A stretch of 62,290 nucleotides of DNA, filler included, from Hausera hauseri (taxonomy: Eukaryota), in the NCBI GenBank assembly GCA_046269625.1. It is 9 parts of 9 records of this genome, joined end to end, with 100 filler letters (N's around TTAATTAATTAA, not from the genome) between each part and the next. Parts side by side here need not be neighbours in the genome. Positions count along the whole stretch, not along the records: positions 4,806 to 12,688 come from JBJURY010896507.1; 8 more parts are not named here. The stretch is one strand, 5' to 3'. Shown in pieces: positions 4,806 to 35,563 of the stretch (positions within the stretch are counted from its first letter, which is position 1; every line of letters begins with the position of its first letter). Under the pieces are notes generated by a model. It did not search any database and was not told the DNA's origin. It saw only the letters and a program-made list of their open reading frames with translations. Both the position numbers and the translations under genes were made by a program.

Positions 4806-4819
4806 CAATATATAACATT

Positions 4820-4837
4820 TGGCGACCCTAGCAGGAC
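4820..4837 (+). promoter_or_regulatory. Primer binding site, probably tRNA-Arg
   Basis: TGGCGACCCTAGCAGGAC 2 nt after the LTR-terminal CA; reverse complement GTCCTGCTAGGGTCGCCA resembles a tRNA-Arg 3' end. Confidence 0.75.
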
Positions 4838-5010
4838 AGATTAGTGCCTCGCTAGACTTACTTCAGCTGAGAATTAAATAACTACATACCGTCGATCAGC
4901 GCCATTCACACCAAGTAATTTAATACAGTTTGAGATTTAAAATTCGGGTCATAAGTTGGGTGAGATTTAAATAATAAGATTGTCTGAGAACAATTATTGA
5001 TAGGTTTAAG

Positions 5011-6473
5011 GTGAACCTCGATTTAAAAGATAAGGAAAATTCGCCTATACGCCAGACGCGTAGAAATACATATAGAGATAGCAAAAAATTAAACAAACGC
5101 TCATTCTCTGAGACTAGAGTAAATTTATCTAATTCAGATTTAACTGCTGTTGAGAGAACAGATAAGTTTAAAATTCCTCTTGCAGAAACTAAAGTTAATA
5201 AAGCAAAATTTGAGATTAATAATATGGCAGCAGATAACCCACCAGTGGCGCAAAAACTGGACATCTTTACTTTTTATTCTCTAAACCTGCCAGCATATGA
5301 CGGTGATCCGAACGGACTAAATGAATTCTTGAGAACTTATAAATTGCATGCAGAAGGTGCTAGTCTTACTCCCGAAGTGATGATTAAACGATTATCGTTA
5401 TACTTGAAGAATTTAGCCGCCGATGCTTATAGCTAGCTCACTAATGATGAAAAGAAATCTTGGTCTTCCATGATAGGATCTTTTAACTGTAAATTATTGC
5501 CGACAGTAACGCCGCAACAAAAACTTATGGCATTTCAGAATAGAGTACAACAGAAGGGTGAATCAGAAACCCAGTTTGCATTCGCATTGAAGAAACTTGC
5601 TAATAGTTATGTGAGCACATTGAGGATAACTAACGAAGAAAAAGCTAAAACCGAAACTGAACGCGAACTTGCAGAATAGGCAAACCCGCCAGATTTAGAC
5701 GTCATGATGATGACGCAATAAATAAATGGTATTTGGTCCCGAGATCTAGTGAAACAGTTGATTTTGACCAGACCTGAGAATTTTGAAAGGACTTTGCAAT
5801 TGGCCCAAGATTTAGAAATGGAACTGGACAGATATGCCAGACATAACGATAGAAACGATAGAAATGATAGAAATAATGATCGAAATGATAGAAATCGGAA
5901 TGACAATCGTGGAAGAGATGATAGACGATTCAATATTAATAGGAATTATGGAAATAAAAATAATAATGACTACAGAAATAGCCGAAACAAAATTTACGGT
6001 AATGACCGAAATACAAATAAGTCGAATCTTAATACGGATAGAAAGGGAGGAAACTACAAAGATTTAACTACTCAAACCGTTATGATGGTGACCGAAATAA
6101 TGATAGTCGACGGAACGTAGAGAATACACAAGGTTCGCCGAACCAGTACAATAGAAGCATAAACAGGTCTAAGTCACCTGTGAATAAAGACGGGCGACAA
6201 AGAATCGGCAGAAATGGGAATTTAGTGTGTTTCACATGCGGTATAGAAGTACACATTGCACGGTCATGTTCAAACCAACGGAGCGTTTCGTTTACCGAAC
6301 CTAATAAAACTAGCATGATTAAAGTCAAAGAGAACTTAGAAGCGAAATTTGGTGATCTTGGAGATACAGGTACTATTATCAACGTACAGGATTTGCGGAA
6401 ATTTCTAGATGCTCAACCTGAAACTACTAATCCACAGATTTTGACGACCAAAAAGAGTATGGAGATAAACTAA
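5011..6473 (+). pseudogene. gag: Gag (retrotransposon capsid region, NDR-repeat linker, CCHC zinc knuckle)
   Basis: YDGDP..LNEFLRTY...IKRLSLYL; FQNRVQQKGESETQFAFALKKLA; RND repeats; CFTCGIEVHIARSC. In-frame stops and one frameshift. Confidence 0.85.
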
Positions 6474-6479
6474 GACTAT

Positions 6480-9400
6480 TAGAAGTGTATCATGGTTTAG
6501 CAGAACCAGAAACTGAATTTGAGTATGCGATAGCGTCAAAGCGAATTGATATGAAACGAAAAAAGAGTATTTCGACGAGTAATAAAACAGCCGATACAGC
6601 AGGAACTTCAAAAGAAGTCAACTTAGATGCAGAGCCCGAGTTCACGGTTGAAATGTAGACAAGACTACCGAAGACGATATATTTAAAAAAATTTATGGAG
6701 CTATTAATACTTAAAATTACGAAGAATAGAGGCCGCAGCCCCTTATTGAAAACTGGATGTAGAATTCGTTCACGATCATCAGTAACTAAGGGGAAACCAG
6801 TAGAAATGAAAAATAGGAATATCGCTATAGAGGGCGGTCTAGAGTCTAGCTCGAATACACCAGAGATTGGTCCACTCACACCTATCGAGGCAAAAGAACC
6901 GGCAGAATAAATAAATGAAATTAACTAGATTTGCTCACTTCCCACTAGTGAAGAAGAAACGGGGAGCATAAATGATTTCGATTCAAGAAAACGAAAAGTC
7001 CGACGTTCGTGGAAAAATGCCAAGGAATTAAAGAAAATTAGAATTAGATGTCACGATCCGAAAATATTGCAGCAGAACTTAGAGAGGTTTAAGCAAATTA
7101 ACAAACAAGTAGATATATCCCGTAAAGAGCAACAATTTGCTGAGAGGTTGTATAAAAGTTTAAAATTATGTACTGAAGGAAAGCTCGATGAAGCAATCGA
7201 CTTAGGACAACCGAAAGAAGTGCCACCTGAAACGTTGCTAAAATGGAAGCGTAAATTAAAAACATGGATTAAAAGTGGAGTCGAATTTTCGGAAGGATGG
7301 AGCAAAAACGAAGATAGTTTTGATGTAAAAGTCGCTAAAGCTCAGACGCTACTGTCTACCTTAAATGCAAAACCTTAAAATTCTTAAAAATCTTTAAGCA
7401 AAACCTTAGAAGTCCGTAATGTAAAGCATATGATGGATGAAATTCGCTGTGCAATGATTAATCGGCTAAGAGAAAATCCGATAAATATTCCTCCCTTAAT
7501 GGAGATGATAAAAATCGCCTTTGCGGTACCCAAGCAATATACGAACCTAGAAAATCGTATCAAAATGGAAAATGAAAACCGGTTACAAATTTGTGGTTTG
7601 AGAAACCGAATTATGTTTCTAAATAACGAAGAAACCAAATACGTAATAAAAGCTTGTAGCATAGAATTCGATGAATACAACGATGAGTTTAGTCATATCA
7701 GCCGGATTATAAATTTCATAAAAGGTCCATATGATGAATTAATGGATGTGTATAAGATGCTAGATAAGGCTATATTAGCAAAGCCAATAATAGATAATCA
7801 AGTACGGGAATGGTCCGAATTAGTAGTGAGACTAAGTAAATTAGTGGACGACCGTAGGAAAGAATTTCTAGAAAGGGAGCCTTCTATTAAAAAACAATTA
7901 GAAGAAAGTGCACGTAACTTATATACAATACAAGCGGAAATAGATATCAGGACTCAATTAGAAGAATTATGACAATTGAATTTTAGGAAGAAGCAAGAAG
8001 TAACGATATTTGAAGAGATATATAAAATGATCGAAGAAACAGACTTTACAGAAAAGCGGAATATGACTTGCAATTTTTACCCTAGATTAAGAAACGTCCG
8101 ATTAGAAGGAGTCCAACATTTAACAGCTAAATCTATCGACGAAATTTCCATACAAGATATCGAAACCTTAGATATTTGTCCAAAACATAGAACAGCTTTA
8201 GAGGAAACGATGCGACTAAAACATAAACCACAAGAATGTATAGTCGAAACAGATCAGAATTGTCATACCCAGTTGAAAAAAATAAGAAACGACCAACATC
8301 TTAGTTTTGAAGAAGCTAAGTTGGTAAAGAAATTGCTTGACGCGATAGATCCCGATTCAAGAATCATCAATGAGATGTACGAGTTAGCTTTTCTCTTATT
8401 AGAAATGGCAGAAATTAATGATGAGAAGATGAGGCAATTCATGCCTAAAATAAGACAGGTTGAAGAAACATGCACTAAAACTAAACAAAGAACAACCAGG
8501 TTAGACGAACTAATAAAAGAGCTCGAAATCTACCGGAACAAATATGCTTTCACAGAATCGGAAATAAAACGGAAGACAAAATTTGTACAAAGATGGCAAA
8601 GAAATGTAATTATTGAACTAATTGATTACCACCAAAAGGGATTCATCCATTCTACTGAATTAGGCGAACTACTGAAAATGATTCAATATGCCCGGAGAAA
8701 CGGAATAGGTCTCCGAACTATGCAGATAAAAGAAATACAACCGAGATTGTAAGACATTCGAGAGAATATGCAAAGGACGAATACAGCACCAGTGGACTAT
8801 AGACTTCCAGACGTTGGAAATGAACCGGAATGGGATGCGCACTTAGATGCAGTAACGGCCGAAAATTCTGTGACGCCAGTACAGCTTAACGAATGGAAGC
8901 GTATCCGCAGAACAGTAGATTCAATGTGGAGATACTACTGGATTCAGCGCTAACTGAAAAAGATTTACTTAAACTAATTAACGTAAACATTACTGAAAAT
9001 AAGTTAAGACAACTTATTCCGACTTTGACTAAATTATCTAGTGAGAATATAATTTATAGCACGGTGCCGAAACTTTTGATAAGGAAATACGCTAAAATCG
9101 TAAGGGCTAAACCTGAGGTAACGATGAAAGTGTGGGTATCATCCAAGTGGACGGACGAAAAAGAATCTGAGTTAACTACGTATTCCTATGTAAGGGGCGT
9201 AAGAGAATGGCTAATCAATAATGGTGGAACAAACGAGTTAAACTATAGATTCTATTTTAGAGGTAGAATACTAGACGATTTTGAACAGCTAATAGACGTC
9301 GGTATCATCCCCGAAGAAACAAATCGAATAGTAGCGATAGTAGCTAATGAACAGACGAAAAAAGAAGCCACGCGTAAGGCTAAAACAGAACAATGTGTAG

Positions 9401-10050
9401 GACAAATTATGGGAGTCAAAGATGCTGCAATGTATTTCGATTATTTACAAACACACGAAGATAAGGAACAATACGACAAGAATTTAGTGCCACTGAGCAT
9501 AATGATAACAACCGTTACGAAACAGAAACGTCCGGTAGGCCGTCCCAGAAAATTCGTGAAGATATTGACTATAATGGAGAACTGATTAGAGAATTGAGAC
9601 AGATGTCGATTCCTATTTTCAGCACAGACAATGAACAATTAATCGAACTAATGAAGAATTTCATTCGAATTGTAAATTATGCAAGCCTTTGAGGAGGCAT
9701 ATTGGACGATAAAGAGAAGGCGATATTTAATGCAGCTAGGATAATGAGAAGTTCACGTTTTAAGTTATCAGAGTAACTTAACCGATGAGTCGGAGATTGA
9801 AAAGATCGTGGTAGAAAATTCGATAGATTAAATAAGAAAAGTACTACTGTATCTAGCTATCAAGACAAACCCCAATCGAGAAAATGAATTTGACAGAGCT
9901 ACAAGCTTGGCATGAAGAGCGGCTAGGAAATTACCTGAAGAAGTAAACTGGCCAAAATTATTTGATACAGAAGATAAAAGGACTAGTAATAGTACCAGAC
10001 TCGAGGATATGTTACGTAATTTCACAACAACAGATAATAGTAACCGGAAA
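6480..10050 (+). pseudogene. Long accessory region between Gag and Env (coiled-coil segments, Cys/His cluster, ubiquitin-like domain about 9124-9342, AT-hook 9526-9552)
   Basis: ORF pieces at 6695, 7067, 7430, 7976 and 8768 share one frame, separated by stops; YRFYFRGRILDDFEQLIDVGI; KRPVGRPRK. Confidence 0.65.
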
Positions 10051-11870
10051 AACGAATCCGACTGGTTAATCAGCTTACTCACCTTGATGGTGCTAATAAA
10101 ACAGTTAGGTACGACTGCGATAAATTTAGACTGGGACAGAAGTATTCTCTAATGGATTTAGAGGCATGCTAAGATGCCTGACCGCATAAATTAGAAATGG
10201 GGAAGAAATATTACTTCCTATATCAACAACAAGAATTAATATCGTTGGACGGAATGGAATGTATGTTGAGACGATCTCGTAGCATTTTTCACTGTGAATT
10301 AGGGAACGGACGTTCTTTAATAATCAAACCAACAACTCCAATCCCAATGAATTTGGAACCCCAGTATTGTAAGCAAGCCAAGGAAACCGAAAGATTAAAA
10401 TGGGATGGTATGGAACTAGAGATGCAACCAGGAAATATAATTAGGGCATATAAAGTAGTGGTTGGAAGACTAGACATGAATAATGGACATTGTAACGGAG
10501 CAGAGTATGACACCAGAAAAGGATTAGAAGCAAACGTAGTGGTCGTAGATTTCTATGAATCGGAGATGCGAGTACAGAAAGTAATGTTCCATAGCGTCAT
10601 CAAATTATATACCGAAAATCAAAAATGCCATTTACAGGACGGAACCTGCGCCTTTAGAAGTTCGGTTATAATATGGGAACCCCGTTCTGGAAGAAACTAT
10701 AAGTTCATCAAAATTAAGGAATTGAAATTTAACGAAACTACAGGGAAACAATACGCGAATAAATCCGATACCAACTCAAGAACACGCGAGGACGTATCAG
10801 AACACCCTACACCTACGATACTAATCTCCGACCAGCATGGACTAAAATTTATTAAGAAGGAAATGATCTCCCGTTGAGATGTTGTGATGTTCGCCACTAA
10901 CTATAAAGCATTTTTCGTCGTAGAAACGAAAATAAATACGAACTTATAAGCTAGAAACGCAGGACATTCGGATTGAAGATTACTTGAAAAACCGGGGCGA
11001 TTATTTTTATTACAAAGGCCAAGTTGGAATAGCCGAACTATACCACAAAATGATAACGAATGATTGTAAACTGGATAAGGAAATCATGAGGACAAAGCTG
11101 GCTCTTATCTGTGCTAACCCTGAGTTATCATCCTCAATAATTCCTATGAGAGAAGTAATTTTCAGTCGAGTTACTGGAGAAATCTTATTGATTTACAAGT
11201 GTGAGAAACGGGATATACCAACTAACGTTGAAGAGAAACGATGTATACAATAACTTACCGTTATCTACCAGAGCACCCCAAGATTGGCCATGCCACTTAC
11301 CACAGTATTGCTAGATAACGCAACTCAGCCAACAATCCTTAAGGATTGTAAGACAAGTTTAGGAGAACAAATGTTCAGGCGTAGCAAAACAAATTAGGTT
11401 AGTTTACCTAATGGAGGTATTACTGCCGCTCCAAATAAATTAACGGGAACAAACCTCGCGAAAGGGATCACCGGCGACAAATTTTAGGATTCCTCATCTA
11501 AAGGAATATATAGACCTAAGGAAATTGAAGCTTTCATATATTTCTCACCTTTCCACGACAGCGAACACGAGTTAAATCGAGCTATGGCCTTCGTAGTGGA
11601 TGATTCTCGATATCAAGCTAAATGGGAATCTTTGCTTGGTGTAAACCATTACCAGCGAATAACCACAGAAATACTCGACAAAATTTGGGAAGATTTTTAA
11701 TTTTTGGACAAGCCGCATCCGGAATTTTAGCGATATATTTTCTAATAGAAATTGTTAAGGCCGTCATCCAAGCAGTAATAAATAGGTATGAAATATTTGC
11801 ATTGACCGGATTTTCATGTAAAATACTAACGGCAATCATAATGCCTTTTGGAAAGTTCTTGAGAGCATAT
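10051..11870 (+). pseudogene. env: Chuvirus-like (class III/gB-type) envelope glycoprotein with hydrophobic signal and C-terminal TM
   Basis: WLISLLTLMVLI then, across a frameshift, YDCDK...YSLMDLEAC; C.....S..HC; GHCNG..Y....G...NVVV; CHLQDGTC...IIW; GEILLIYKC...C..LTVIY; KGIY; TM FLIFGQAASGILAIYFLIEIVKAVI. Confidence 0.75.
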
Positions 11871-12688
11871 GAAAAGAATAGATGGAAATCGGACGTACAA
11901 CGTCATGTCGGTTATCACAATCGCAAACGAAAAGCAAAACCTATGTTCTTGTACAAGCGGAAATTCACAAAACCTAATACGCGAAAAAATAATTCGGATG
12001 ATGACGAGCCTAAGGGAAGAGAAGTACTGCCAAGAACAGAAAGACACAAGACGTATTACGTCATTAAAGCACTATTGCCTATGCTACCTCCTACTGCTCC
12101 AGTCTATGAAGACTGTGACAAACGATCATTGAGCTCATATCAGACAGAAATCTATAAAAGGACAATTAGTTTAGAAGACCCATACGAAGGAACAAAACGT
12201 TATGGAGTCCTACGGAAAGTAAGTTATCGGCAGCTCGTGGATGACCCCAGAATATTGTATTCCCCGAGAAAGCCTCAGAATATAGAGACTAGACCGCCTG
12301 TCTGGGGAAATCAAAGGTTACAAACCTTCCAGAACATAGAACCACAGACTAACAATCGAGAACCATTAATTAATACTCATGAAACGGAGGAATTGGACAT
12401 CGAAAACAATGAATTATATCCAAATGCAGAACTAAGACAACTGTCGGAAAACATAGTATCCTCCCCAGAGATCCGAATCAAAGGACATAAAATATCAGCG
12501 ACCAAACGCCCAAAAGCCGCATCAAACTGTTTTGGAACAAAAAGAGAAGGAAGACCCTTCGCCAAAATCATTATTGAAGACTGGGAAGTTTATGCATTAA
12601 TAGACACAGGTTTTGAGATGTCTTACATTGAAAATGATTCAATACCTCAAACGCTAAGAGGACAATTATACCCACCATCTACAAAGGA
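11622..12688 (+). CDS. Env TM and tail fused in frame to a retropepsin aspartic protease (truncated by contig end)
   Basis: One uninterrupted ORF runs from the TM helices to RPFAKIII...VYALIDTGFEMSYI (DTG at 12603-12611). Confidence 0.85.
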
Positions 12689-19891: not shown

Positions 19892-22068
19892 GTAAACTTA
19901 ATAATGTTACTATCATGGATGCTTACCCTTTACCTTTGATAAAAGACATCTTACATTCGTTGCATAAAGCTACAATCTACTCCACTATAGACCTAGTAAA
20001 TGCCTACCACCAAATACCAGTAGCGCCTGAAGACATCAAGAATCGGCGATAACACCATTTGGCCTCTTCGAATACGCCTTCATGTCGTTTGGCTTAAAGA
20101 ACGTAGCCCAAACTTTTCAACGGCATATTGATTCTATCCTTTCAGGCCTCCCATTCGCTTACCCATATATCGACGATATACTGGTAGCATTATCTTCACC
20201 TAAGCAACACGCTGAACACCTCAAACTTGTTTTTCAACGCCTGCACAACAACAACTTACAGGTTAACTTCGCAAAATGCACATTCTTTCAAAAGAAAGTC
20301 AATTTCCTAAGCCACATCATCACGCCTGATGGTCACAGTCCACAGCCTGATAGAATTCACCAATTACGAAATATCGAACTGCCAAAAACTACAACTGATA
20401 AGCGCAGCTTTCTCGGTACTTTGCATTTCGTTCATAAGTATGTGCCACACTGCAGCCATTTAACTTCTCCTTTCGTTCAACTAAAAGCAGGGCCAAAGAA
20501 GAAACCTTTATATTGGACGCCAGAACTTTTAAATCTGTTTGATGAGCTCCGCAAAAATCTTAAAACCATTGAAATCTTGGATTATCCAAAACCTAATGCC
20601 GATCTCATCCTGACAACCGACGCATCAACCACAGTTGTCGGAGCGGTTCTCCATCAATTATCTCAAGGAATAAATGAACCACTAGAATTCTTTTCACGTG
20701 AGCTCCAGCCACAAGAATGCCGTTATTCCACATTGGATAGGGAACTCCTGGCCATCGTTTTAGTTCTTAAACATTTTTCACATTTACTTATCGCCTGGTC
20801 TTTCACCATTCAAACAGACCACAAGCCCTCGTTCACGTAATGAATATGAAGCACCATCACTTCGACAAAAACGTCATATTTCGTACTTGTCAACGTTCAA
20901 CTTTAAAATCTGCCACATTTCTGGCACAGATAATTTAATAGCGGATTTTTTGTCACGATCGGTTAGTGCAATTAGCGTCATGCCTATTTTTACTAAAGAA
21001 CAATTGGTTCAGAATCCTCCTTCTACTGAAATACTTAAACAATATAAATCTGTCCAAATCATTGATGGCGTAGCCATGGACACGTCGACACCTGGGCACC
21101 ATTTGACAATTTTGGCACCTTCTCTTCAACAAACAGCATTTAACCATATTCATTCGTTGCATCACCCAGATTCGAAGGCTACATTCCGCCTACTCAAACG
21201 TCACGTCACATGGCCATCAATGAGATCTGACGTACAGGGTTGGGTTAGGCAATATGTGGCTTACCAAAAATTCAAAGTAGCTAAGCATCTTAAGCCACCA
21301 TTATTCCATTTCCCATGTACATCCCGTTTCGAATCAGTTCACATAGATATTGTTGGTCCATTACCTTCTGATAATGGCCACCAGTTCATCTTAACAATGA
21401 TGGACCGCGCATCTCGTTGGCCAGAGGCTGTTTCCTTGCGCTCCATCAACGCTGACTCCATCGCCGATGCATTCATAAGGGTTTGGATTTGTCGGTTCGG
21501 TTCACCACGCTATATTACCACAGATCAAGGCCCCCAGTTCGAATCGAACCTATTCAAATCCTTAGTTAATCGACTGGGCATAAACCATATTCATACTACT
21601 CCATACCATTCCCAATCGAACGGCTTATTGGAGCGATTTCACCGAACTCTTAAAATCTCCCTGAAAATTCTAGCCGAAACACATACAAACTGGACTACTA
21701 TCCTTCCATTCGTATTACTTGGGTGGCGCAACATATCATTTACCACCACCGGTTGCGCACCCGCTGAAGCACTCTTCAGCACCACAATTCGTGCACTTTT
21801 TGAACTGACCGATTTAGACAACACACCGACTGACGAAACAATTAGGTCCGCACAAGATCATTTCATCCGGCTAAGTCGAGACTCTTTCTGTAAAATAATA
21901 CACGGCGACAAAACATATTTACCTGACTCCCTATTTAATGCAAAGTTTGTATGGTTGAAAAATCCGTCACCATCTGGATTCTCAATATTACTTCACACAC
22001 AATTTCAATACTCAAAAACGGCAAAAAAACGTGTACATAACGAACGTAAAACCTGCGTTCTTCGTTAA
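19892..22068 (+). pseudogene. pol: Ty3/Gypsy Pol: RT, RNase H, integrase (CsRn1-like), frameshifted
   Basis: DAYPLP, AYHQIP, MSFGLKN, YIDD, TTDAS, DRELLAI, TDHKP, HIDIVGPLP, TDQGPQFES, NGLLERFHRTLK. Confidence 0.95.
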
Positions 22069-22916: not shown

Positions 22917-23359
22917 TGTAAATCGAACAAAAGTTCCCAAAAATATAAAATCACATCTGGGAAAAATAAAAAGTTTTTTAACGAAATTTGAAATTAATAA
23001 CCTTAAAGTTTAAATTTTCTAACATGGAAAATTACAAATTTTACGGATTCATTAATAGAAAAATTTTCTAATAACAAAATCTAAAATCTAAATCACGGGT
23101 TCGCCTAACATAAGAACCAAAAATATATTCAAATATAGCCAAAGCAAAAGTAAACAAAAAAAACGGATTACGAGTGCTGAATTGACCAGCACTTGTTAAC
23201 AATCAAGATCTGTGGATTTAATCTATTTGTTTAAATCCACAGTAAAAGATTGAACAGTTACTTTGAAAAAAAAAACGAAAAGTCAGTCGAAGATTTTTCC
23301 AGAAAAGAAAAAGGAAACTTTCAAGAAAAGTTGAACGTTTCAAAAAGGGTACGGCCACA

Positions 23360-24469
23360 GCCCCTAGTAAATTTACCGGGACAAACCTAATCAAAAGATT
23401 ATCGGAAGATAAATTCGAAGATACAGCTAATAAAGGAATTTATAGGCCAAAGGACATAGAAACTTTTAGGCAATTTTTAGCATTTCTGCGACAGAAAACT
23501 TATGAACTGAATCGGGCCATGTCAGTGGTCATGGATGACACCCGCTTTCAAGCAAAATGGGAATCGTTACTCGGCGCTAATTACTATCAGAGAGTAACTT
23601 CTAAAATATTGTATAAGATTTGGGGAAGATTTATGATTTTCGGACAAGCTGCATCTAAATTCCTAGCCATCTACTTTTTAGTTCAGCTGATTAAAGCCGT
23701 AATCCAAGCCGTTATAAACGAATATGAAATATTCACATTAACAGGAATTTCCTGTAAAATTTTTACTGCAATCATCATGCATTTTGGAAAAATACTTAAG
23801 GCCTACAAAGAAAATCGATAAAAAAATGATGTAGAACGCCACGTCGGGTACTATAATCGCAAACGATGAGGGAGGCCCTCAATTTTATATAGATGTAAAA
23901 ACAAGAAAACAATAATAAGAAAGGATGATTCAGATGATGACGAGCCTAGGGGAGAAGTGAGTTCTAGAATGAAAAAGCATAAGACGTACTCAGTGATCAA
24001 TGCGCCACTGCCTATCATGCCACCAATCGCATCAATATATGAAGACTGTGACCGTAGATCGGTCATATCATGTAAGTCCGAAATCTACCAAAAAAGGAAA
24101 CAATATAGAGTATTACAGAAAATGAATGTTATCAACCAAGGACAAACAGAAAACTACCACGGAATATTGTACTCGAAAACGATACCGCGTCACATAGAAT
24201 CAAAATCAACGATCTGGGAGAACCAGAAACTGTGTTCGATCTCGGGTTCACTACCTCGGGGACCGCTCATTGGCAGTCGCGCCAATGAGGTGGCGGATAT
24301 TAATTTATACCCGAGCGGAGAATTAAGACAATTAAGGCAAGATATTCTTTCATCGCCAGAGATAACAATAAATGGACACAGAGTCTCTACTATAAAACAG
24401 TCGAAGATAGCGTCAAATTGCTTCGGAACAGTAGTAGAAGGAAGACCGTTCGCTAAAATACATATCAAA
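23360..24469 (+). mobile_element. Second, diverged copy of the env-tail-protease region of the 4806-12688 element
   Basis: KGIYRPKDIE, FMIFGQAAS..LAIYFL, DDDEPRG, YEDCD.RS, LYP..ELRQL, SNCFGT..EGRPFAKI all collinear; TM part and protease-proximal part share one frame. Confidence 0.9.
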
Positions 24470-25410: not shown

Positions 25411-26340
25411 CACAATTCCCCTGTTTTAAAATGAATTAATGAGTCAATGGAAATTGTTATTTCACTACATTAAAGAAATGAGGTTTTTGGTATTTTACAT
25501 TTCTGCTATAATCAACAAAGAATGCAAGCAAATATGAATTCTATAGAATACACTAAACGTTAATAGTGAGAAAACACTTTCATTTACTCGCTGGGCTGTG
25601 GGCACTCGTCCAGCTTTGTTTGTCTGGTGTTTATATTGGCTTAAATTAAAGTTGCTGTAACTTTGAGTTATCAACTTGTGTAAAATTTTGCATCAGTGCT
25701 GAAAAAGTTCATTTATTTTTCCATGCACACGTTACACGACATAATGAGCTTGACATCTTTTCTTTGTGGCCTGTATCTTCTTGTTGCTGTAATTATAATA
25801 TCTCTCTGTCTCTCTCTCCTCTGCATTCGGACAGGTCCACCCTGTGATGTGCGTGTTCCAATGTACTAGGCAGGTCACTGATCTTCCCTTTATGGGTCTG
25901 GTCTAATGCGTTGCACAGTGGTTTAGTGTGCCTGGGAGTGCTTGTTACTCAGGCATTCTCAGTTTATGGCAACACAGTGATCGGTCGTGTTATCATTTGC
26001 TGTGCGTCTTTTGGATTATTTCTAAATTATTTCTGAATTACCAGTGGATTAATATGAACGATTCACACACCGCCATGAGCGGACAACGAAGTGGTTTGTG
26101 GTGAAATGTTTTAAAATTCGACTTAAAGCTTATATATTGAGTTTTTGTGACATTTATGAACAATGACGGTAAGAATTACCCATTTCAGATAATTTACCAG
26201 TGTTCGATAGGTTTCACCTGGCGTGGTCTTACGTAATCTTACGGCAACGCCTCAGTCTGATTTTGCGTAATTTTACGTGTGGTTTGTCGAGCTATCCGGC
26301 TGATTACAAATGAATGTCGCGCTGAGGTAATATGTGAACA

Positions 26341-28614
26341 ATGGAAAATGCAGAGAGAGGCGTACTACTGGCTACATCTTCCAAGCCAACGACAAGGCGA
26401 ACAACCAGCAAAGCGTATGATTTGAACAAAGAGAGGGCTGTTCGAAGAAAACTCACCACGTGGAATACACCACCCAACGTTACGATAAAACATACAAATA
26501 AAGGACAATGTTGTACCATCACATTTCACAATACACAACACTATGAACTGTTCCGACATCTAGCCATCGAACACTACCAAAACTATAATATTGACTCGAG
26601 AACCGATAAACAGAACGCCCATGTTGAAGACAAAATAACCACGGCTTCTGTTACTATACATCTATATCATACAAAAAATAAGATACTAACACAAGGCACT
26701 GCCGAGTATCTCAGAATCTGGCTGGAGAACGAATTCCAGAATCTTCAAGCATCAGCTCTAGGCCAGACCACAGCAATGTTTATATATGATCCAGCATCCC
26801 CAACAAACACACTGAATTTCCCAAATACATCGGCTCCACTAGCGATCATGGACTGTAGCATTGCGCCAAACAAGCTGGCCATTGAAGATGGGAATGTCCC
26901 TCACAACCCTACGCCATCCACTGACGCTACCACTAACCATCTGTCTGGCGAAGATACATGTACAATTGTTATCCCATCTAAGGACGGCGTCACTAGAAGC
27001 ACCACCTGCGTTGAGACACAAGCTCATACACCACAAACATCCCAAATCCAGCTAATAGAGATTGAAAATCCCACAGTAGCAGACGTTGCATCAAGTCATG
27101 AGGTGATGGGAAATCTCAACGAACCTAATGTTCCAATAAAGCTGACTTGTTGTGAGGAGCAAATAACGAACCTTCGCAGCTGTATAAGCAACATGGTGGA
27201 CAAGTTAACTGCAGATCTAAAATCAGAACTGACTGCTATCAAAACAGAAATGCACTTCCTTCGAGAAGAAAACATGAAACTTATATCTCATATTAAACAA
27301 CTCGAAAAGAAGGTAGAAAACAAGAAAGAAGGCAGTCTTGATGACAACATGCCCACAACTACTGACAGCCACCCACAAAACAACTCTGCTTTATCCACTG
27401 AGGCAGCCTCGACTTGCAGCAATGAATATTTATCACACTCTGAGACTGCAGCAAATACAACTACAACCACCATGCTAGCGAAAGAAGCGCCAACAAAAAA
27501 TAAAACCTTTCCAATAGAGGTCAAAATTACGAACCGTCAACAAGAGACAGAGAAGAAACTGCCGCATAAAATTACAGATTCGCAAACCTCACGTGGCACT
27601 CCACAGCCAAGTCTCAATCAAAGTGAGTACTCTGATAATGACAACCAATGGCAAGTAAAACAACGGCGACATCGACACCTGCCACAGCGACACGTTCAAA
27701 ACGACGCCACCAGCGTTATAATTGGCGACTCTTTGTTAAACGGCATTCATGCCGACAAAATGTCCATTAGCCCAGACGAGGTGGTCGCAGTACTTGTACT
27801 GCCAGGTGCTGGGGTGGAACGACTGACTTACGAAATGAGTCGCCTTAAAACCAATGGGAGTGTTAACAAGACGACAATCCACGTTGGTATTAATGACTGT
27901 TCAAATGGCCGCGTCTTACACGAGAATGATCTTCATAAAATGATCATTACGGCTAAAAAAGTATTCCCAAGCAGCCAAATCTATATGTCCTCTATTATTC
28001 CCCCCAGCCAAGGCAGCCTTCGTAGAATAGTGGACAAGACCAACAACGTGATCAATGCGTTCTGTAACAAATACGCCCTTGGTTTTATCAATAATACACC
28101 ATTCTTCACATCGGGCTCGGGGGCACCAAAAAAGGCCCTATACAGAGACGCGATCCACACATCCAAACTAGGAACAAGCTATCTGGCGAAAAATATAAAA
28201 TTTCCTGAAAGGACAAGTCATGAACGCCGAATGCCGCAGCGTGAATACAAAGCTGTTGACCCAGCCAATAGGCAACAACAGAAAATCTCGCCACTACTGC
28301 CCGCACCTAAAACAACGGGCGAAACTCAACGTTTGCCATATCAGCAAAGTCTGCCATATAATGAAGCATTTCCAGCGCTTCCCACAAGGCAAGATCCTCC
28401 AGCCAGCTGGGCAGACCTGACCATGGCTAATCCAGGCACCAGTAATTCCCCAGTCACAAGAAACACAGCAGGGAAACCGGCCTTAGCCAATCACTTTTCT
28501 GATGGCTCAGAACGATCTGTTCACAGCCCATCGATAGTTCATTATCTTATGCAGTACAACCCTGTAATCTTACGACAAGCTTTGCAGATGTCGTTACAGG
28601 GCATCACTCAGTGA
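26341..28614 (+). CDS. CR1/L2-group LINE ORF1 with coiled coil and SGNH/GDSL esterase domain
   Basis: 757-aa open ORF; IIGDSL, PGAG, HVGIND and DAIH esterase blocks; coiled coil LKSELTAIKTEMHFLREENMKL. Confidence 0.9.
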   Translation: MENAERGVLLATSSKPTTRRTTSKAYDLNKERAVRRKLTTWNTPPNVTIKHTNKGQCCTITFHNTQHYELFRHLAIEHYQNYNIDSRTDKQNAHVEDKITTASVTIHLYHTKNKILTQGTAEYLRIWLENEFQNLQASALGQTTAMFIYDPASPTNTLNFPNTSAPLAIMDCSIAPNKLAIEDGNVPHNPTPSTDATTNHLSGEDTCTIVIPSKDGVTRSTTCVETQAHTPQTSQIQLIEIENPTVADVASSHEVMGNLNEPNVPIKLTCCEEQITNLRSCISNMVDKLTADLKSELTAIKTEMHFLREENMKLISHIKQLEKKVENKKEGSLDDNMPTTTDSHPQNNSALSTEAASTCSNEYLSHSETAANTTTTTMLAKEAPTKNKTFPIEVKITNRQQETEKKLPHKITDSQTSRGTPQPSLNQSEYSDNDNQWQVKQRRHRHLPQRHVQNDATSVIIGDSLLNGIHADKMSISPDEVVAVLVLPGAGVERLTYEMSRLKTNGSVNKTTIHVGINDCSNGRVLHENDLHKMIITAKKVFPSSQIYMSSIIPPSQGSLRRIVDKTNNVINAFCNKYALGFINNTPFFTSGSGAPKKALYRDAIHTSKLGTSYLAKNIKFPERTSHERRMPQREYKAVDPANRQQQKISPLLPAPKTTGETQRLPYQQSLPYNEAFPALPTRQDPPASWADLTMANPGTSNSPVTRNTAGKPALANHFSDGSERSVHSPSIVHYLMQYNPVILRQALQMSLQGITQ

Positions 28615-29217
28615 TAGTATCTGCATTAAACTAATATGTGCTCATTTAATTTGATCTATGGAATGTTGTCTACATACGCTTTCTCTCGGCAACGCATTGA
28701 TTTTTATAACTAACAAGTATTTTGTTTAAGAAAACCTGTTTTGACACTCAACACTATAGAGAAGTGTTAGTTTGCTGTTCTATTCACGAACACAAAGAAC
28801 TTTTGACAATTTGCACTAATTAGTGCCTTTTAACATTTTTTTTTTCTGTTCTGCTACACATTATAGAGAAACTATTGACTGTTTTATTTTTCTTCTGTCC
28901 TAAACGGAAGGCACAACTTTTATCTTGGTTGTTTCACTTTGTTCTCTGTACAGGTGCAGATCACGGTCACTGACATTTGAAATCATAATCATCAGTTAGC
29001 TTGACGTTTATGGACGTTTGAGTTCGTCTTTGCGTATTTGACTGTGTTGAAAATATTGATGCATTCCTGTCTGTTTTTAACTTGCCACATTTTATAGAGT
29101 GCGTCACTACAACAATTACTGTGTAATTTCTGTTCATCCGTTATTGATAATTTTGACTTTTTCTTGTTATACATTGTATTTCATTCGCATTTTGCCTTTT
29201 CTTAAAAACGATACTTA

Positions 29218-31368
29218 ATGACTCAACCAATCAAAACCGAGTATCCAAATCAACATGGTCTCAGGATTGGACATCTTAACATTTGTCATCTTTTTAACAT
29301 CGGTAAACTGACCGAACTAAACTCTCTCTTACACAACAACAACAATAATTTCCACATTTTTGGTCTAACAGAAACAAGACTGAATCAACATATTTTGGAT
29401 TCAGAGCTCCAGATTACTAACTACAATATTCATCGAAAAGATCCGACAATTAAATTACAGACTGGGGTGGCAGTATATGTACATACAAGTCTCAAAGTAA
29501 TACGTCGACTAGACCTTGAATGTCCTGAAGTCGAGTGTATGTGGTTGGAAGTTTGTCTTCCACACACATCTCCTCTCTTGATATGCATTCTGTACCGGAA
29601 TCCCGAGGCCAGAGTAAGATGGTTTGATCATTTTACAGACATGATGGATGTTGTTTTTAATACCTCTCTTGAAGTAATAATCTTAGGAGACTTTAACATT
29701 GACGCCACGAAACAGAATGCAAACTGGGAAAATCTCTACTCCCTGTTTAACTTACAACAGATGATATCACTACCGACCCGAGTCACGGACAAGTCGTCCA
29801 CATGCATAGATCATATCTATGTTAGCAACACTGCCCGAATTCTAGAAGTGTGCGTCCCTGTCTGCGGTCTTAGTGATCACTATCCGATCTGCTGCACGTG
29901 GACTAAGAAGGGTGTTCGAATCCCCAAATTACGCCACCATATTGTTCATAATCGTTCATTCAAAAATTTTAATGAATCGGTTTTTCTGGCAGACCTATTG
30001 GCGGCACCCTTCCATAATGTGTACGGGTCATCCACTGCCAGCCAAGCCTTGGAAACGTGGCTAAAAACCTTCATAACGGTCTTGGACTGCCATGCTCCCC
30101 TGCGTGCAAAACGTGTGCAATCTAAAACTATACCACCTTGGATAACCTCGGAATACTTAGCCCTGAGGCGCCAAAGAGACTATTTTAAAAAAATAGGGGA
30201 CCACGCAAACTACAAAAAATACAGGAACCTATCGCAATATGTACTGAGAAAATCTAAAAAAGATCACTTTACAGCGATAGTAGAAAATGGTAAAAACTCT
30301 TCAAAAATATGGGATGCAATAAACAAACTTACAAACACAAACCAAAGCAACCAATACCACTCCAGTAATATCTCTGCCGATAACTTTCGTCACTTCTTTT
30401 CCTCAAACACAAAAGCCGCAGAAACAAACTGTCCTCCTTCTGATTACAATGATCTTTCTAAATTTATTCAGTCTAAACTGAATGGCACTGATCTTCCTGA
30501 CCTACCTTTTCTTTCTGCTACAGAAGTAGTCTCCTTAATCAGAAGCCTGCCTCGCAAGAAATCTTGTGGTATAGATGGAATTTCACCACGTATCCTGCAT
30601 TTAGCAGCCCCTGTGGTAGCTGAATCTCTCACATACATATATAACTTATGTATTGCTCAAAAGACTTTCCCGGACCACATGAAAGCAGGGATCGTGATTC
30701 CAGTCCCCAAAAAAGGCAACCCTGATCTTGTAGAAAACTATAGACCGATTTCGTTACTTTCTGCAATCTCCAAGCCTCTCGAGCGACATATCTATAATCA
30801 TATGCAAATTTCTATTAATAAATTTAATCTCTTACATGAGAATCAATCGGGCTTTAGGCGTAACCACTCCTGTCAGTCTCTACTAACAAAACTCACCGAG
30901 ATATGGCACTCAAACATAAACTGTAATAAAATCAATGGTGCCCTGTTGATAGATTTATGCAAAGCCTTTGACAGAATAGACCACCGTATACTTTTACATA
31001 AACTAAAATTGTATAAGTTTCATTCGAACGTCATCTCAATGGTTCAGTCCTTTCTTGAAAATCAAACACAACGTGTTCTCCATAATAATACATTATCCCA
31101 GCCCTATACTGTATCGGTTGGGGTTCCACAGGGCTCAATAATGGGCCCTCTACTTTTTAATATATATGTCAACGATCTTCTGTTAACACTCCCACATGAT
31201 GAAAGTCTCATGTTTGCCGATGATACAACTCTGACAGTAGCTAGCACAGACATGCACTCTGTAGAATCCCGACTACAGCACCATTTAAATGTACTACATC
31301 GGTGGTGCCTAGCCAATAAAATGTCCATTAATATTGCCAAGACGAAGTCGTTAATAGTATCCACAAGA
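29218..31368 (+). CDS. CR1/L2-group LINE ORF2 (APE endonuclease plus reverse transcriptase), cut by contig end
   Basis: LTETRL, LGDFN, IDHI, SDH; NYRPISLL, QSGFR, KAFD, GVPQGS..GPLLF, FADD; no stops. Confidence 0.95.
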
Positions 31369-32748: not shown

Positions 32749-33039
32749 ACGGCGATAAGGAAAATACGGGACATCGAATCGTCTCAGTTGCTCGTCCTCC
32801 ATTAGACGTCGATGGAATCGATTCATGTGCATAGTTATTTCTGTTCTGAGGATGATGCAGTAACAGGCGATCTTTATCATAGCTGGTATGATTTAATGGA
32901 TTATTACCTATATATTTATGATTTTGGATAAACAATTCCTATTCAATATATTGCTGATAATCGCAGAAACTTTAATTTTGATCCCAAAGGACTTCGGTGT
33001 TATACAACAGATTATGATAACACTTCAAGTGGAGAATTC

Positions 33040-35563
33040 GGGCACCCCGCATTTTGGTGCCCGTCCCGCCGAGGCGGAGGTCCTGACCGCCAAACTTGCG
33101 CCGGTCGGTCTGGGGGCACTTTCGACGTCGGTCCCAGGTCACGCTTCCAGGCGCACCACTACTCTCCCCATTTACTTTTTTTTCTATAATAATACCCACA
33201 AATATACGGCCAACACAAAACACCTACACATTTCCACCCTTCAGACCCGCATCTCTTCCTCCCTTGGGTCTTCCGACTTCCTTCTTACTCATCACGGCGC
33301 TATCATTTATCTTAACGAAATTTCCTCTTTTCCTAATCTAACTTGCTTCGACATACATCTCCGTATCCGTGGTGGAATGAATTCCCCACCAACCATTGAC
33401 ACCATGGATACAACTACCACAAATAAACCAATACCCATCCTTTATTACTCCAGACCAAACCCTCCACTTTCTTCAATCCATGCAAATCTCCATAAAAACC
33501 CTACCAACACTTTTCACAGCACTGAATACTTTGTAGGTAACGAAAAATCTAGTAAGACGTGGCTTCATTTCCACCAACACTGGCTCCAGTCTAATGCTAT
33601 CACTGAATCCTTATCTAAAGCCTATAGCTTGCTCTATCATCTCCCAAACTCCATCAAAGCCTCGATACATAATCTACTAGAAATCTTTCAAAATTCTGAC
33701 CCGTATACCCAATTATTCGACGCTGTATTAAAGCAGACTGAATCCTTAATTGACTCCATAATGCAGCGTGTCTTCAACGAAAATGCGCTGGGCACGCAAA
33801 AACTCAGTTACTTCTTACGCACTTTACTAGCACACTTGCGCACTCTTGGAGTAACTCAGAAATATAACCCGGATCTTCTACGCCATTATTTTATGAACGC
33901 TTTACCTATCCAAATCCGGACCATTCTTACCGTGGTGGGAGACTCCACGCAGCTTGAAAAATTGGCCGAATTGGCTGACAGGACATACGACGTCCTAAAC
34001 ATAAATTCGTAACCCGTAGTTTCAGCAGCAGTTGCTGCTAACGACATACAAACAACCAACATGCCCATAGAACAGCAGCTAAATCAGCTACGTGCTGAAA
34101 ATATTGCATTGCAGGCAACTATCAACAACAAATAATAAACTAAATAAATTGTCTTTGTCCCGACGAGGGGGCTTTGCCGCTGACCGTACCCCTTCCACGT
34201 CACGAAACCGCTTACCATCGCCTGCGCGTTCGTCGATCTGCTACTACCACAGCAGACTCAACACAAATGCTCAGAAATGCTGTCTTGGTTGCCAATTTTA
34301 CAATAGTAAATTTTCTTCCAACAAGGTTATCTGCATTTACCATGCAAGATTCAAAAATCAAGCATGTAAATGTATTCCCGGCTGCACCTTCAAATCCAAT
34401 ACGAACGACGGACGTATTGCCTTCACTTGAAACATTCGTCCCACTTCTCCTTTTCCAAAAACTAACTTCGCCACCAGAAGTCACGGCAACCGCTGGCGAA
34501 GGCACTTCTTCACACTCTAAACGCCGACATGTCTCTTTCGCAGTCTTCACGCTAAAAGCCGCAATCACTGCCCCTACAAATCAATCTCTTGACTTCCTTA
34601 TTGATACAGGGGCAGCCATTTTTCTATTACCGCAAACCTTTCCTACACAAAACTCTCGTTTCAAAATCAAGTTTTTATATACTGCTTCAGGCCAGCCGAT
34701 GCACATCTCGGGCACGGCTACAGTGTCTTTCACGCTACCAAATTTCTCTACATCTTTCCGCTGGAGGTTCACAGTCGCTAATGTCCAGTCGGCAATCCTT
34801 GGATCTGACTTTCTCTCGCACTACAATCTACTGGTTGACTGCAGCCAGCGATGTTTGAGGAAAGGCACCGTTGGCGACATTTCTGGACATGTTAATAACG
34901 TTTCGACTACCGCGCAGTTGACCGTGAGGCGGAAGTCAATCTTAAAAAAGGCCGCAAATAATTCGATTTTTTATAACAATAATTCGAATCTTCATAATAA
35001 TAATTCAGTTCGAAAATTTTTAAACAATAACTTTGATATACGATCGAGATTTGATGTCGATAAGTGTGGTGCTACCACCAACGCTAACTCCTTCGACGGA
35101 AATACCTCAGCCAACACCATTTTCAATTCAACCATTTTACACCAAATACCACTTGGCTGCACGTCATCTAACAACTCACACATCGCATCCGCCACCACTC
35201 AAACCGTTCCACCACTTTCACCGAATCTATCACAGCTACGTACCATGTTACAGCAAATCATCAACAAATCATGTCCACGAGTACTTAAAAAAGACCGTAC
35301 TTTTACTCCCGCAAACAGCGCCTTACACCACATAGTCACACAGCACCAACGTCCAATACGCCACAAAGTACGGCCTCTGTCACCTCGCCGTAGACAGGCC
35401 GTAGAAGCCGAATTTCTTGAGCTTGAACGTTCTGGCATAGTACGCCGTTCCAAATCTCCTTGGTCTTCACCGTTACACGTCGTACAAAAAAAGGACGGTA
35501 CCTTTAGACCATGTGGTGATTACCGACAGCTTAACAACTTGACCATCATGGACGCATATCCTT
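33040..35563 (+). mobile_element. CsRn1-like Ty3/Gypsy element, 5' part: LTR end, PBS-like TGG at 33055, ubiquitin-like leader, Gag with two CHCC fingers, protease, start of RT
   Basis: Gag ...FMNALPIQIRTIL...LAELAD; CYYH...AQKC..GC and CIYH...ACKC.PGC; FLIDTGA; ILGSDFL; [24 protein letters not shown]. Confidence 0.92.
34456..34501 (+). promoter_or_regulatory. Probable -1 ribosomal frameshift signal (gag/pol)
   Basis: Imperfect slippery run CAAAAAC, then TAA, then stem CTTCGCCA...TGGCGAAG, just upstream of the protease. Confidence 0.55.

Follow-up and report, generated by a model that had tools for sequence, protein, structure and literature searches.

This locus raises the question of what is encoded between the gag and env genes of a decayed retroelement, and of what the product could do for the element. 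The window is the whole stretch of DNA that we analyzed (62,290 nucleotides), and it consists of joined contigs (counted as 10) with spacers of the form N-TTAATTAATTAA-N, so that parts on either side of a spacer are not to be taken as genomic neighbors. The element lies on one of these contigs, where a probable LTR end, a primer site, gag, extra coding sequence, env, a linker and the start of a protease follow one another on the plus strand:

4806-12688, plus strand: contig part of the window (limits of the joined contig)
4806-4831, plus strand: probable terminal bases of the 5' LTR, with AACA up to 4817 (read from the sequence)
from 4820, plus strand: candidate primer-binding-site-like TGGCGACC (read from the sequence)
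4978-6470, plus strand: gag, with capsid region and one CCHC-type knuckle (6225-6272), interrupted by stops and a frame change
6491-8950, plus strand: extra coding sequence, charged and probably helical, about 820 codons (frame statistics)
10063-10110, plus strand: signal/anchor segment with which env begins, hydrophobic (Kyte-Doolittle 1.91 for the 15 residues that begin at 10066)
10110-11910, plus strand: env, class III (gB/chuvirus-type), in several frame pieces (PF24664, tblastn)
12546-12688, plus strand: start of an aspartic protease, LIDTG (RVP E=0.015, translation)

The gag assignment comes from the Gag of a relative, P0004 (described below), which matches 5287-5601 (E=8e-9) and 6195-6347 (E=8e-4) by tblastn, and from Pfam, which reports zf-CCHC at the knuckle (E=0.038); the element therefore has both the capsid region and the CCHC knuckle of a Gag. 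An Asn/Asp/Arg-rich repeat (NDR units) lies in gag ahead of the zinc knuckle, at 5850-6000 (+). For env, the Monjiviricetes class III fusion protein family PF24664 was above its cut-off in three pieces (E=3.5e-8, 1.8e-8 and 1.3e-10), and the env on L001, the contig that encodes P0004, matched by tblastn with E=2e-37. This class III env is upstream of the protease motif, which places it between gag and pol. The signal/anchor segment is in frame with the last piece of the extra coding sequence, since 9916 to 10149 is stop-free. From the env transmembrane region to the protease there is a linker of about 210 stop-free codons (11910-12545, +), which is also present in a sister copy at 23870-24469. 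From gag to protease the element spans about 7.6 kb, and the extra coding sequence between gag and env is about 3.6 kb. Reverse transcriptase and integrase are absent from the contig because it ends within the protease, and as to the LTRs, what the contig shows where it begins (at 4806) is TGGCGACC and one probable LTR end.

The window copy is dead, as stops and frame changes break gag, the extra region and env. It is a decayed member of a high-copy family of gag-env-protease retroelements: 22,212 contigs in one sequencing run (X1, possibly the same source as the window) and 1,257 in another (X2) match the element, with 30 of 30 bins covered in both, and the majority of the copy contigs are less than 95% alike.

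In spite of the decay, the reading frames of the extra region can still be followed. Over 6491-8950 one frame has 7 stops in 820 codons (at 6656, 6908, 6926, 7376, 7385, 7970 and 8750), against 89 and 75 in the other plus-strand frames. Downstream, 8890-9582 is stop-free in one frame over 230 codons, against 33 and 24 stops in the other two. Because stops are this few, we conclude that both are decayed coding frames and not chance ORFs. We found no family for 6491-8950 in Pfam (weak matches only) and no similarity to P0004, where a counterpart is absent. The parts that concern us here are as follows:

8069-8266, plus strand: Cys/His cluster C-x35-C-x2-H-x11-H-x4-C-x7-C-H, with an extra His at 8117 (positions)
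8893-9120, plus strand: conserved domain, predicted four-helix, directly before the ubiquitin-like domain (P0004 similarity and model)
9124-9351, plus strand: ubiquitin-like domain (Ubl), predicted beta-grasp, integral and without a terminal Gly-Gly (relative's sequence and model)
9526-9552, plus strand: KRPVGRPRK, an AT-hook-type motif within a basic patch that follows the Ubl at a distance of 61 residues (P0004 alignment)
9555-9970, plus strand: tail split over two frames, corresponding to the weakly Bcl-2-like domain of P0004 (by position only)

The initial annotation had described a single accessory region with a ubiquitin-like domain, an AT-hook and a Cys/His cluster. The coordinates were right, but the cluster is on a frame piece of its own (7973-8749), apart from the stop-free frame of the Ubl and hook. 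A stop at 8750 and a change of frame near 8890-8950 lie in between, so in the window copy no intact ORF spans all three, and given these breaks gag and the downstream module cannot be read from this copy as one ORF.

To read the region we depended on a relative. Among 1,835,955,588 proteins the Ubl ORF had a sole match, P0004, a retroelement Gag of 997 residues (PF03732 E=7e-4; zf-CCHC E=1.4e-5), and its contig L001 runs on into a PF24664 env (E=7e-43). The order of the parts is common to the two elements. In P0004 the helical domain, Ubl and hook form the tail of Gag and not a separate accessory protein. Identity to P0004 is only 26-27%; at the nucleotide level it is 0.43 at the first codon position, 0.54 at the second and 0.32 at the third across 157 aligned codons, different codons are used for 23 of the 39 identical residues, and blastn gives no match between the window element and the L001 element. 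We conclude from the codon-position pattern and the lack of a blastn match that the module has been conserved over the long term at the protein level between these two elements.

Further searches with the Ubl ORF returned none of 1,051 candidates among proteins of 406-2000 residues, none of 537 among those of 1444-4596 residues, none of 161 pattern matches in metagenome contigs and none of four in viral contigs. A search with the P0004 tail recovered only P0004 itself among 7,989 candidates, and the P0004 cluster has one member. One other locus, L002, gave E=3e-5, but over 51 low-complexity residues. On L001 the Gag-accessory ORF and env share a frame with one TGA between them (L001:3052-3066). 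Programmed read-through could explain this, as could a single mutation.

The Ubl is the part of the module for which we have the most to report. It begins with MKVWV at 9124, and the strand IVAIV ends at 9342. For family membership we required PF00240 or PF11976 above the curated cut-off. The trimmed window piece scores 11.9 bits with PF00240 (E=0.2) and the P0004 piece 23.7 bits (E=4e-5), against a cut-off of 25.4, and for the whole window ORF neither Pfam nor PDB returned a ubiquitin match. When trimmed, the window Ubl has 13 PDB matches; ubiquitin chains make up 9 of these, with scores of only about 2 bits for each repeat. Folding the window ORF as a single sequence gave an uninformative model (pLDDT 34.5), to which Foldseek matched nothing at E<=0.001. 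In the ESM Atlas the top set for the window Ubl is unnamed (0.90), and all four named sets listed are ubiquitin or Rad60-SLD (0.87-0.89). From the window alone, then, the evidence is weak. It is clear through the homolog: a profile of the two Ubls finds ubiquilin-type domains as its best single-domain PDB matches (E=1e-5 to 7e-4), and the best of five models of the P0004 chain (pLDDT 70.9; the other four 41.7-47.2) predicts a beta-grasp fold of about 75 residues. Matches to PTase_Orf2, chlorite dismutase and a MAP kinase were set aside since they are weak and contradict the fold result.

Behind the last strand there is no Gly-Gly in either the window or P0004, so neither would be a conjugatable type I ubiquitin-like protein. 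In this the Ubl is like those of the ubiquilins (PDB 2nbv, 1j8c, 2klc, 1wx8), which are also beta-grasp domains that lack the Gly-Gly; it differs from them in its low identity, in being embedded in a retroelement Gag, and in that we detected no UBA in the window element. We consider it very likely that 9124-9351 is a ubiquitin-like domain. The ubiquitin fold without Gly-Gly that had been proposed from the sequence is supported by the homolog's sequence and model.

The domain before it had been overlooked in the initial annotation. The stretch 8893-9120 aligns with residues 548-632 of P0004 at z=6.4, with 0 of 2,000 shuffles as good, and the P0004 model has four helices there. It has no sequence family match in Pfam or PDB, and in structure searches with the P0004 model the matches listed were taken up by the Ubl. 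Its fold may resemble that of TFIIS-N/IBD domains.

After the Ubl comes the hook, and the window frame breaks directly behind it. KRPVGRPRK does have a GRP core with basic flanks, as does KRGRPRK in P0004. P0004 has no second GRP among its 997 residues; the one it has lies between the Ubl and the helical tail, like that of the window, with an identical GRPRK, and both elements have 7 K/R within 33-35 residues around it. To call the motif a canonical AT-hook, as had been done, is an overstatement: at the center of the HMGA consensus stands RGR, called important (PMC11354804), and the window has VGR there; P0004 has RGR. The window hook falls short of the PF02178 cut-off of 17.4, with a score of 12.8 bits. 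Shuffling the accessory residues 20,000 times produced the pattern GRP[RK]K, which was picked after inspection, in 0.17% of trials, and a six-frame translation of the 62 kb window contains it 3 times. When the two linker segments were shuffled, the hook core appeared in 58 and 38 of 100,000 shuffles. The linker around it aligns poorly with that of P0004 (z=2.2, 88 of 2,000 shuffles). A hook at the same place in a distant relative fits nucleic-acid or chromatin binding, and we believe that it is probably a selected motif for nucleic-acid binding or nuclear targeting. The two elements may also have converged on a basic NLS-like motif, as there are two sequences only and the linker aligns poorly.

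The two remaining parts are less telling. The Cys/His residues are present where they had been placed, at 8069, 8117, 8177, 8186, 8222, 8237, 8261 and 8264. Eight Cys/His in 70 residues is a density reached in about 0.8-1% of 3,000 shuffles in a post hoc test. Pfam assigns the cluster to no zinc-finger family, PDB gives no match to it at E<=10, its stretch compares with P0004 at z=0.1, and the whole upstream stretch is missing from P0004, the one relative found. The cluster may be a zinc module peculiar to this family, or nothing at all.

As for the tail before env, the tail of P0004 is weakly Bcl-2-like (PF00452 E=0.017, below cut-off; PDB 5twa E=0.74). The window tail compares with it at z=1.8 and -0.4, and wrong-frame controls reach z=2.4 and 3.2. 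Because this similarity is not significant against the controls, we do not claim Bcl-2 for the window copy. In a forced alignment VNWPKLF (9943-9963) falls opposite GGWKAF of P0004 and may be a BH2 remnant. A profile of both tails found no Bcl-2 in PDB, and the ESM Atlas had no usable match for the P0004 tail, which speaks neither for absence nor for novelty.

Some of this arrangement has been seen before. Burro/GYPSM1, a giant gypsy-like element of planarians, has a Ubi2/SUMO-like domain between MATH and BCL-2, and its env is between BCL2 and protease (PMC6431247). The view that such domains are not standard between gag and pol therefore needs qualification, since Burro is already known in print to have a Ubi2/SUMO-like domain in the gag-env interval, and the window element has one in the same interval. 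It shares with Burro a Gag with a CCHC knuckle, the Ubi2/SUMO-like domain and a mononegavirus-like env before the protease, and its broken tail stands where Burro has a BCL2-like domain (PMC6431247). There are also differences. BIR, MATH, RING and ankyrin were undetected in the window copy, which is weak evidence in decayed pieces, and there is one knuckle where Burro has two or three. Burro is a single ORF of about 4,900-5,100 residues; the window copy, broken and with its pol off the contig, may or may not derive from such an ORF. In Burro env is in frame without a stop; L001 has the single TGA before env. The term AT-hook has 0 occurrences in the available text of PMC6431247, which names no helical domain fused to the Burro Ubl.

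Gene order, env class and multi-copy state are also those of the GAG-ENV-POL errantiviruses with HSV/gB-type ENV in Platyhelminthes, Nematoda and Bryozoa, for example Smed_errantivirus_1-6 (PMC13524379). By eye, the window env motifs resemble the six Smed rows for env domains I-II in the supplement to that paper, and this planarian likeness points to a flatworm as the probable host of the window element. There the gag-env interval is unannotated, and neither "ubiquitin" nor "AT-hook" occurs in the main text as available. GRPRK had 0 matches in its supplements, but the rows examined were env alignments, so this carries little weight. Our full-text literature search found no AT-hook in such retroelements; the primary Burro papers or their supplements may have one. 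The gene order and the ubiquitin-like cargo are thus not new because they are already in print for planarian elements. What we add is a four-helix, Ubl and AT-hook cassette that is kept between two elements without detectable DNA similarity.

We infer a function for this cassette as follows. Because it precedes the env signal/anchor (10063-10110), it would face the cytosol or the nucleus. It would be made within Gag, as in P0004, and its basic hook would hold Gag or the capsid on AT-rich host DNA. The integration complex would thereby reach chromatin in the manner of the p12 of MLV Gag, by which that complex is held on mitotic chromosomes (PMC5053271), and the Ubl would bind proteins of the host ubiquitin system. 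We give about an even chance to the reading of this decayed retroelement as one with a Gag-side cassette of four-helix domain, non-conjugatable Ubl and hook that serves as a DNA tether and a protein-docking surface, and we are more hesitant, at somewhat short of even, about the hook as a tether to chromatin specifically. The chromatin-targeting accessory protein of the initial annotation survives in part: the recurring hook fits chromatin binding, but the module is the tail of Gag in P0004 and not a separate protein, and none of our results speaks to the anti-silencing role that had been offered as the alternative. For invertebrate enveloped retrotransposons the cassette offers a testable idea, from two sequences and predictions, of how they reach chromatin or bud, which is unknown for most such elements according to PMC13524379.

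The same parts can be read in other ways. The Ubl could be a built-in substitute for a late domain that recruits ESCRT for budding, with the hook binding the element's RNA or acting as an NLS. P0004 lacks PT/SAP, PPxY, YPx(1-3)L and LPxY motifs, and the residue aligned with what we take to be Ile44 of ubiquitin is hydrophobic in both elements (Tyr in the window, Val in P0004). Ubiquitin fused to foamy virus Gag promotes ESCRT-dependent budding (PMC2958808), and AT-hooks bind RNA too (PMC11354804). But identity to ubiquitin chains is only about 13-16% (structure search) and the best sequence matches are ubiquilin-type Ubls; in a second gag-env element of the window no such cassette was detected, and LPAY and YPRL each occur once in the window element, perhaps by chance. 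We consider the budding role unlikely. Slightly less so, though still rather unlikely, is that the cassette is cargo for manipulating the host, freed by the protease: the Ubl, as a decoy for docking to the proteasome or an E3, would act with the hook and a Bcl-2-like tail on the survival of stem cells or on transcription, silencing of the element included, and the cassette would have no part in particle formation or integration. The Burro MATH, BIR, RING, Ubi2/SUMO-like and BCL2 domains have been read as tampering with apoptosis and ubiquitination (PMC6431247), and Burro1 B-IAP is reported to protect stem cells against apoptosis (cited in PMC13465017). Ubiquilin Ubls as top sequence matches and the weakly Bcl-2-like tail of P0004 would agree with this, but that Bcl-2 call is below cut-off in P0004 and not significant in the window, Pfam detected no BIR, MATH or RING in the window copy, and we found no silencing-related domain.

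A further reading is a LEDGF-like tether on Gag, in which a TFIIS-N/IBD-type bundle would grip the element's integrase or host elongation factors, the AT-hook would sit on chromatin and the Ubl would be a budding signal. If it were true, the elements would have captured in a single cassette a substitute for two cofactors that retroviruses have to take from the host, but we think it quite improbable. LEDGF has AT-hooks beside a helical integrase-binding domain and p12 is a Gag-encoded tether (PMC5053271); the likeness of the cassette to either is a functional analogy only. Least likely of all, and in our view very improbable, is that only the Ubl and the helical domain are real, the hook and the Cys/His cluster having arisen by chance or convergence in the basic, low-complexity linkers of a polyprotein that evolves fast. 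Both patterns were picked after inspection, the hook core recurs elsewhere in the six frames and is below its Pfam cut-off, and the Cys/His stretch has no P0004 counterpart. Against this, the only GRP of P0004 is in the same interval with an identical GRPRK, for which chance gives about 6 in 10,000.

Several other elements are present in the window. At 23267-24469 (+) there is the env end of a sister family with its linker to the protease, at about 68% DNA identity to 11427-12154; the accessory region is absent from it. The second decayed gag-env element is at 57450-60030 (-), with zf-CCHC (E=1e-5), a PF24664 piece (E=5e-5) and a tblastn match to the L001 env (E=1e-15); its knuckle is separated from env by a short stretch only, and the Ubl cassette was not detected in it. 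Its truncated end is overlapped on the opposite strand by 185 stop-free codons at 56984-57538 (+) with an MA3 match (E=1e-4). This piece, which we take to resemble the splicing factor CWC22, may be a captured host gene. A gypsy RT-RNase H-integrase lies at 20031-22068, and a LINE with a GDSL-esterase-like ORF1 and an endonuclease-RT ORF2 at 26338-31368. A further probable gag-protease-RT start was read by eye at 32897-35562, and a gag piece at 51879-52584 (-) resembles P0004.
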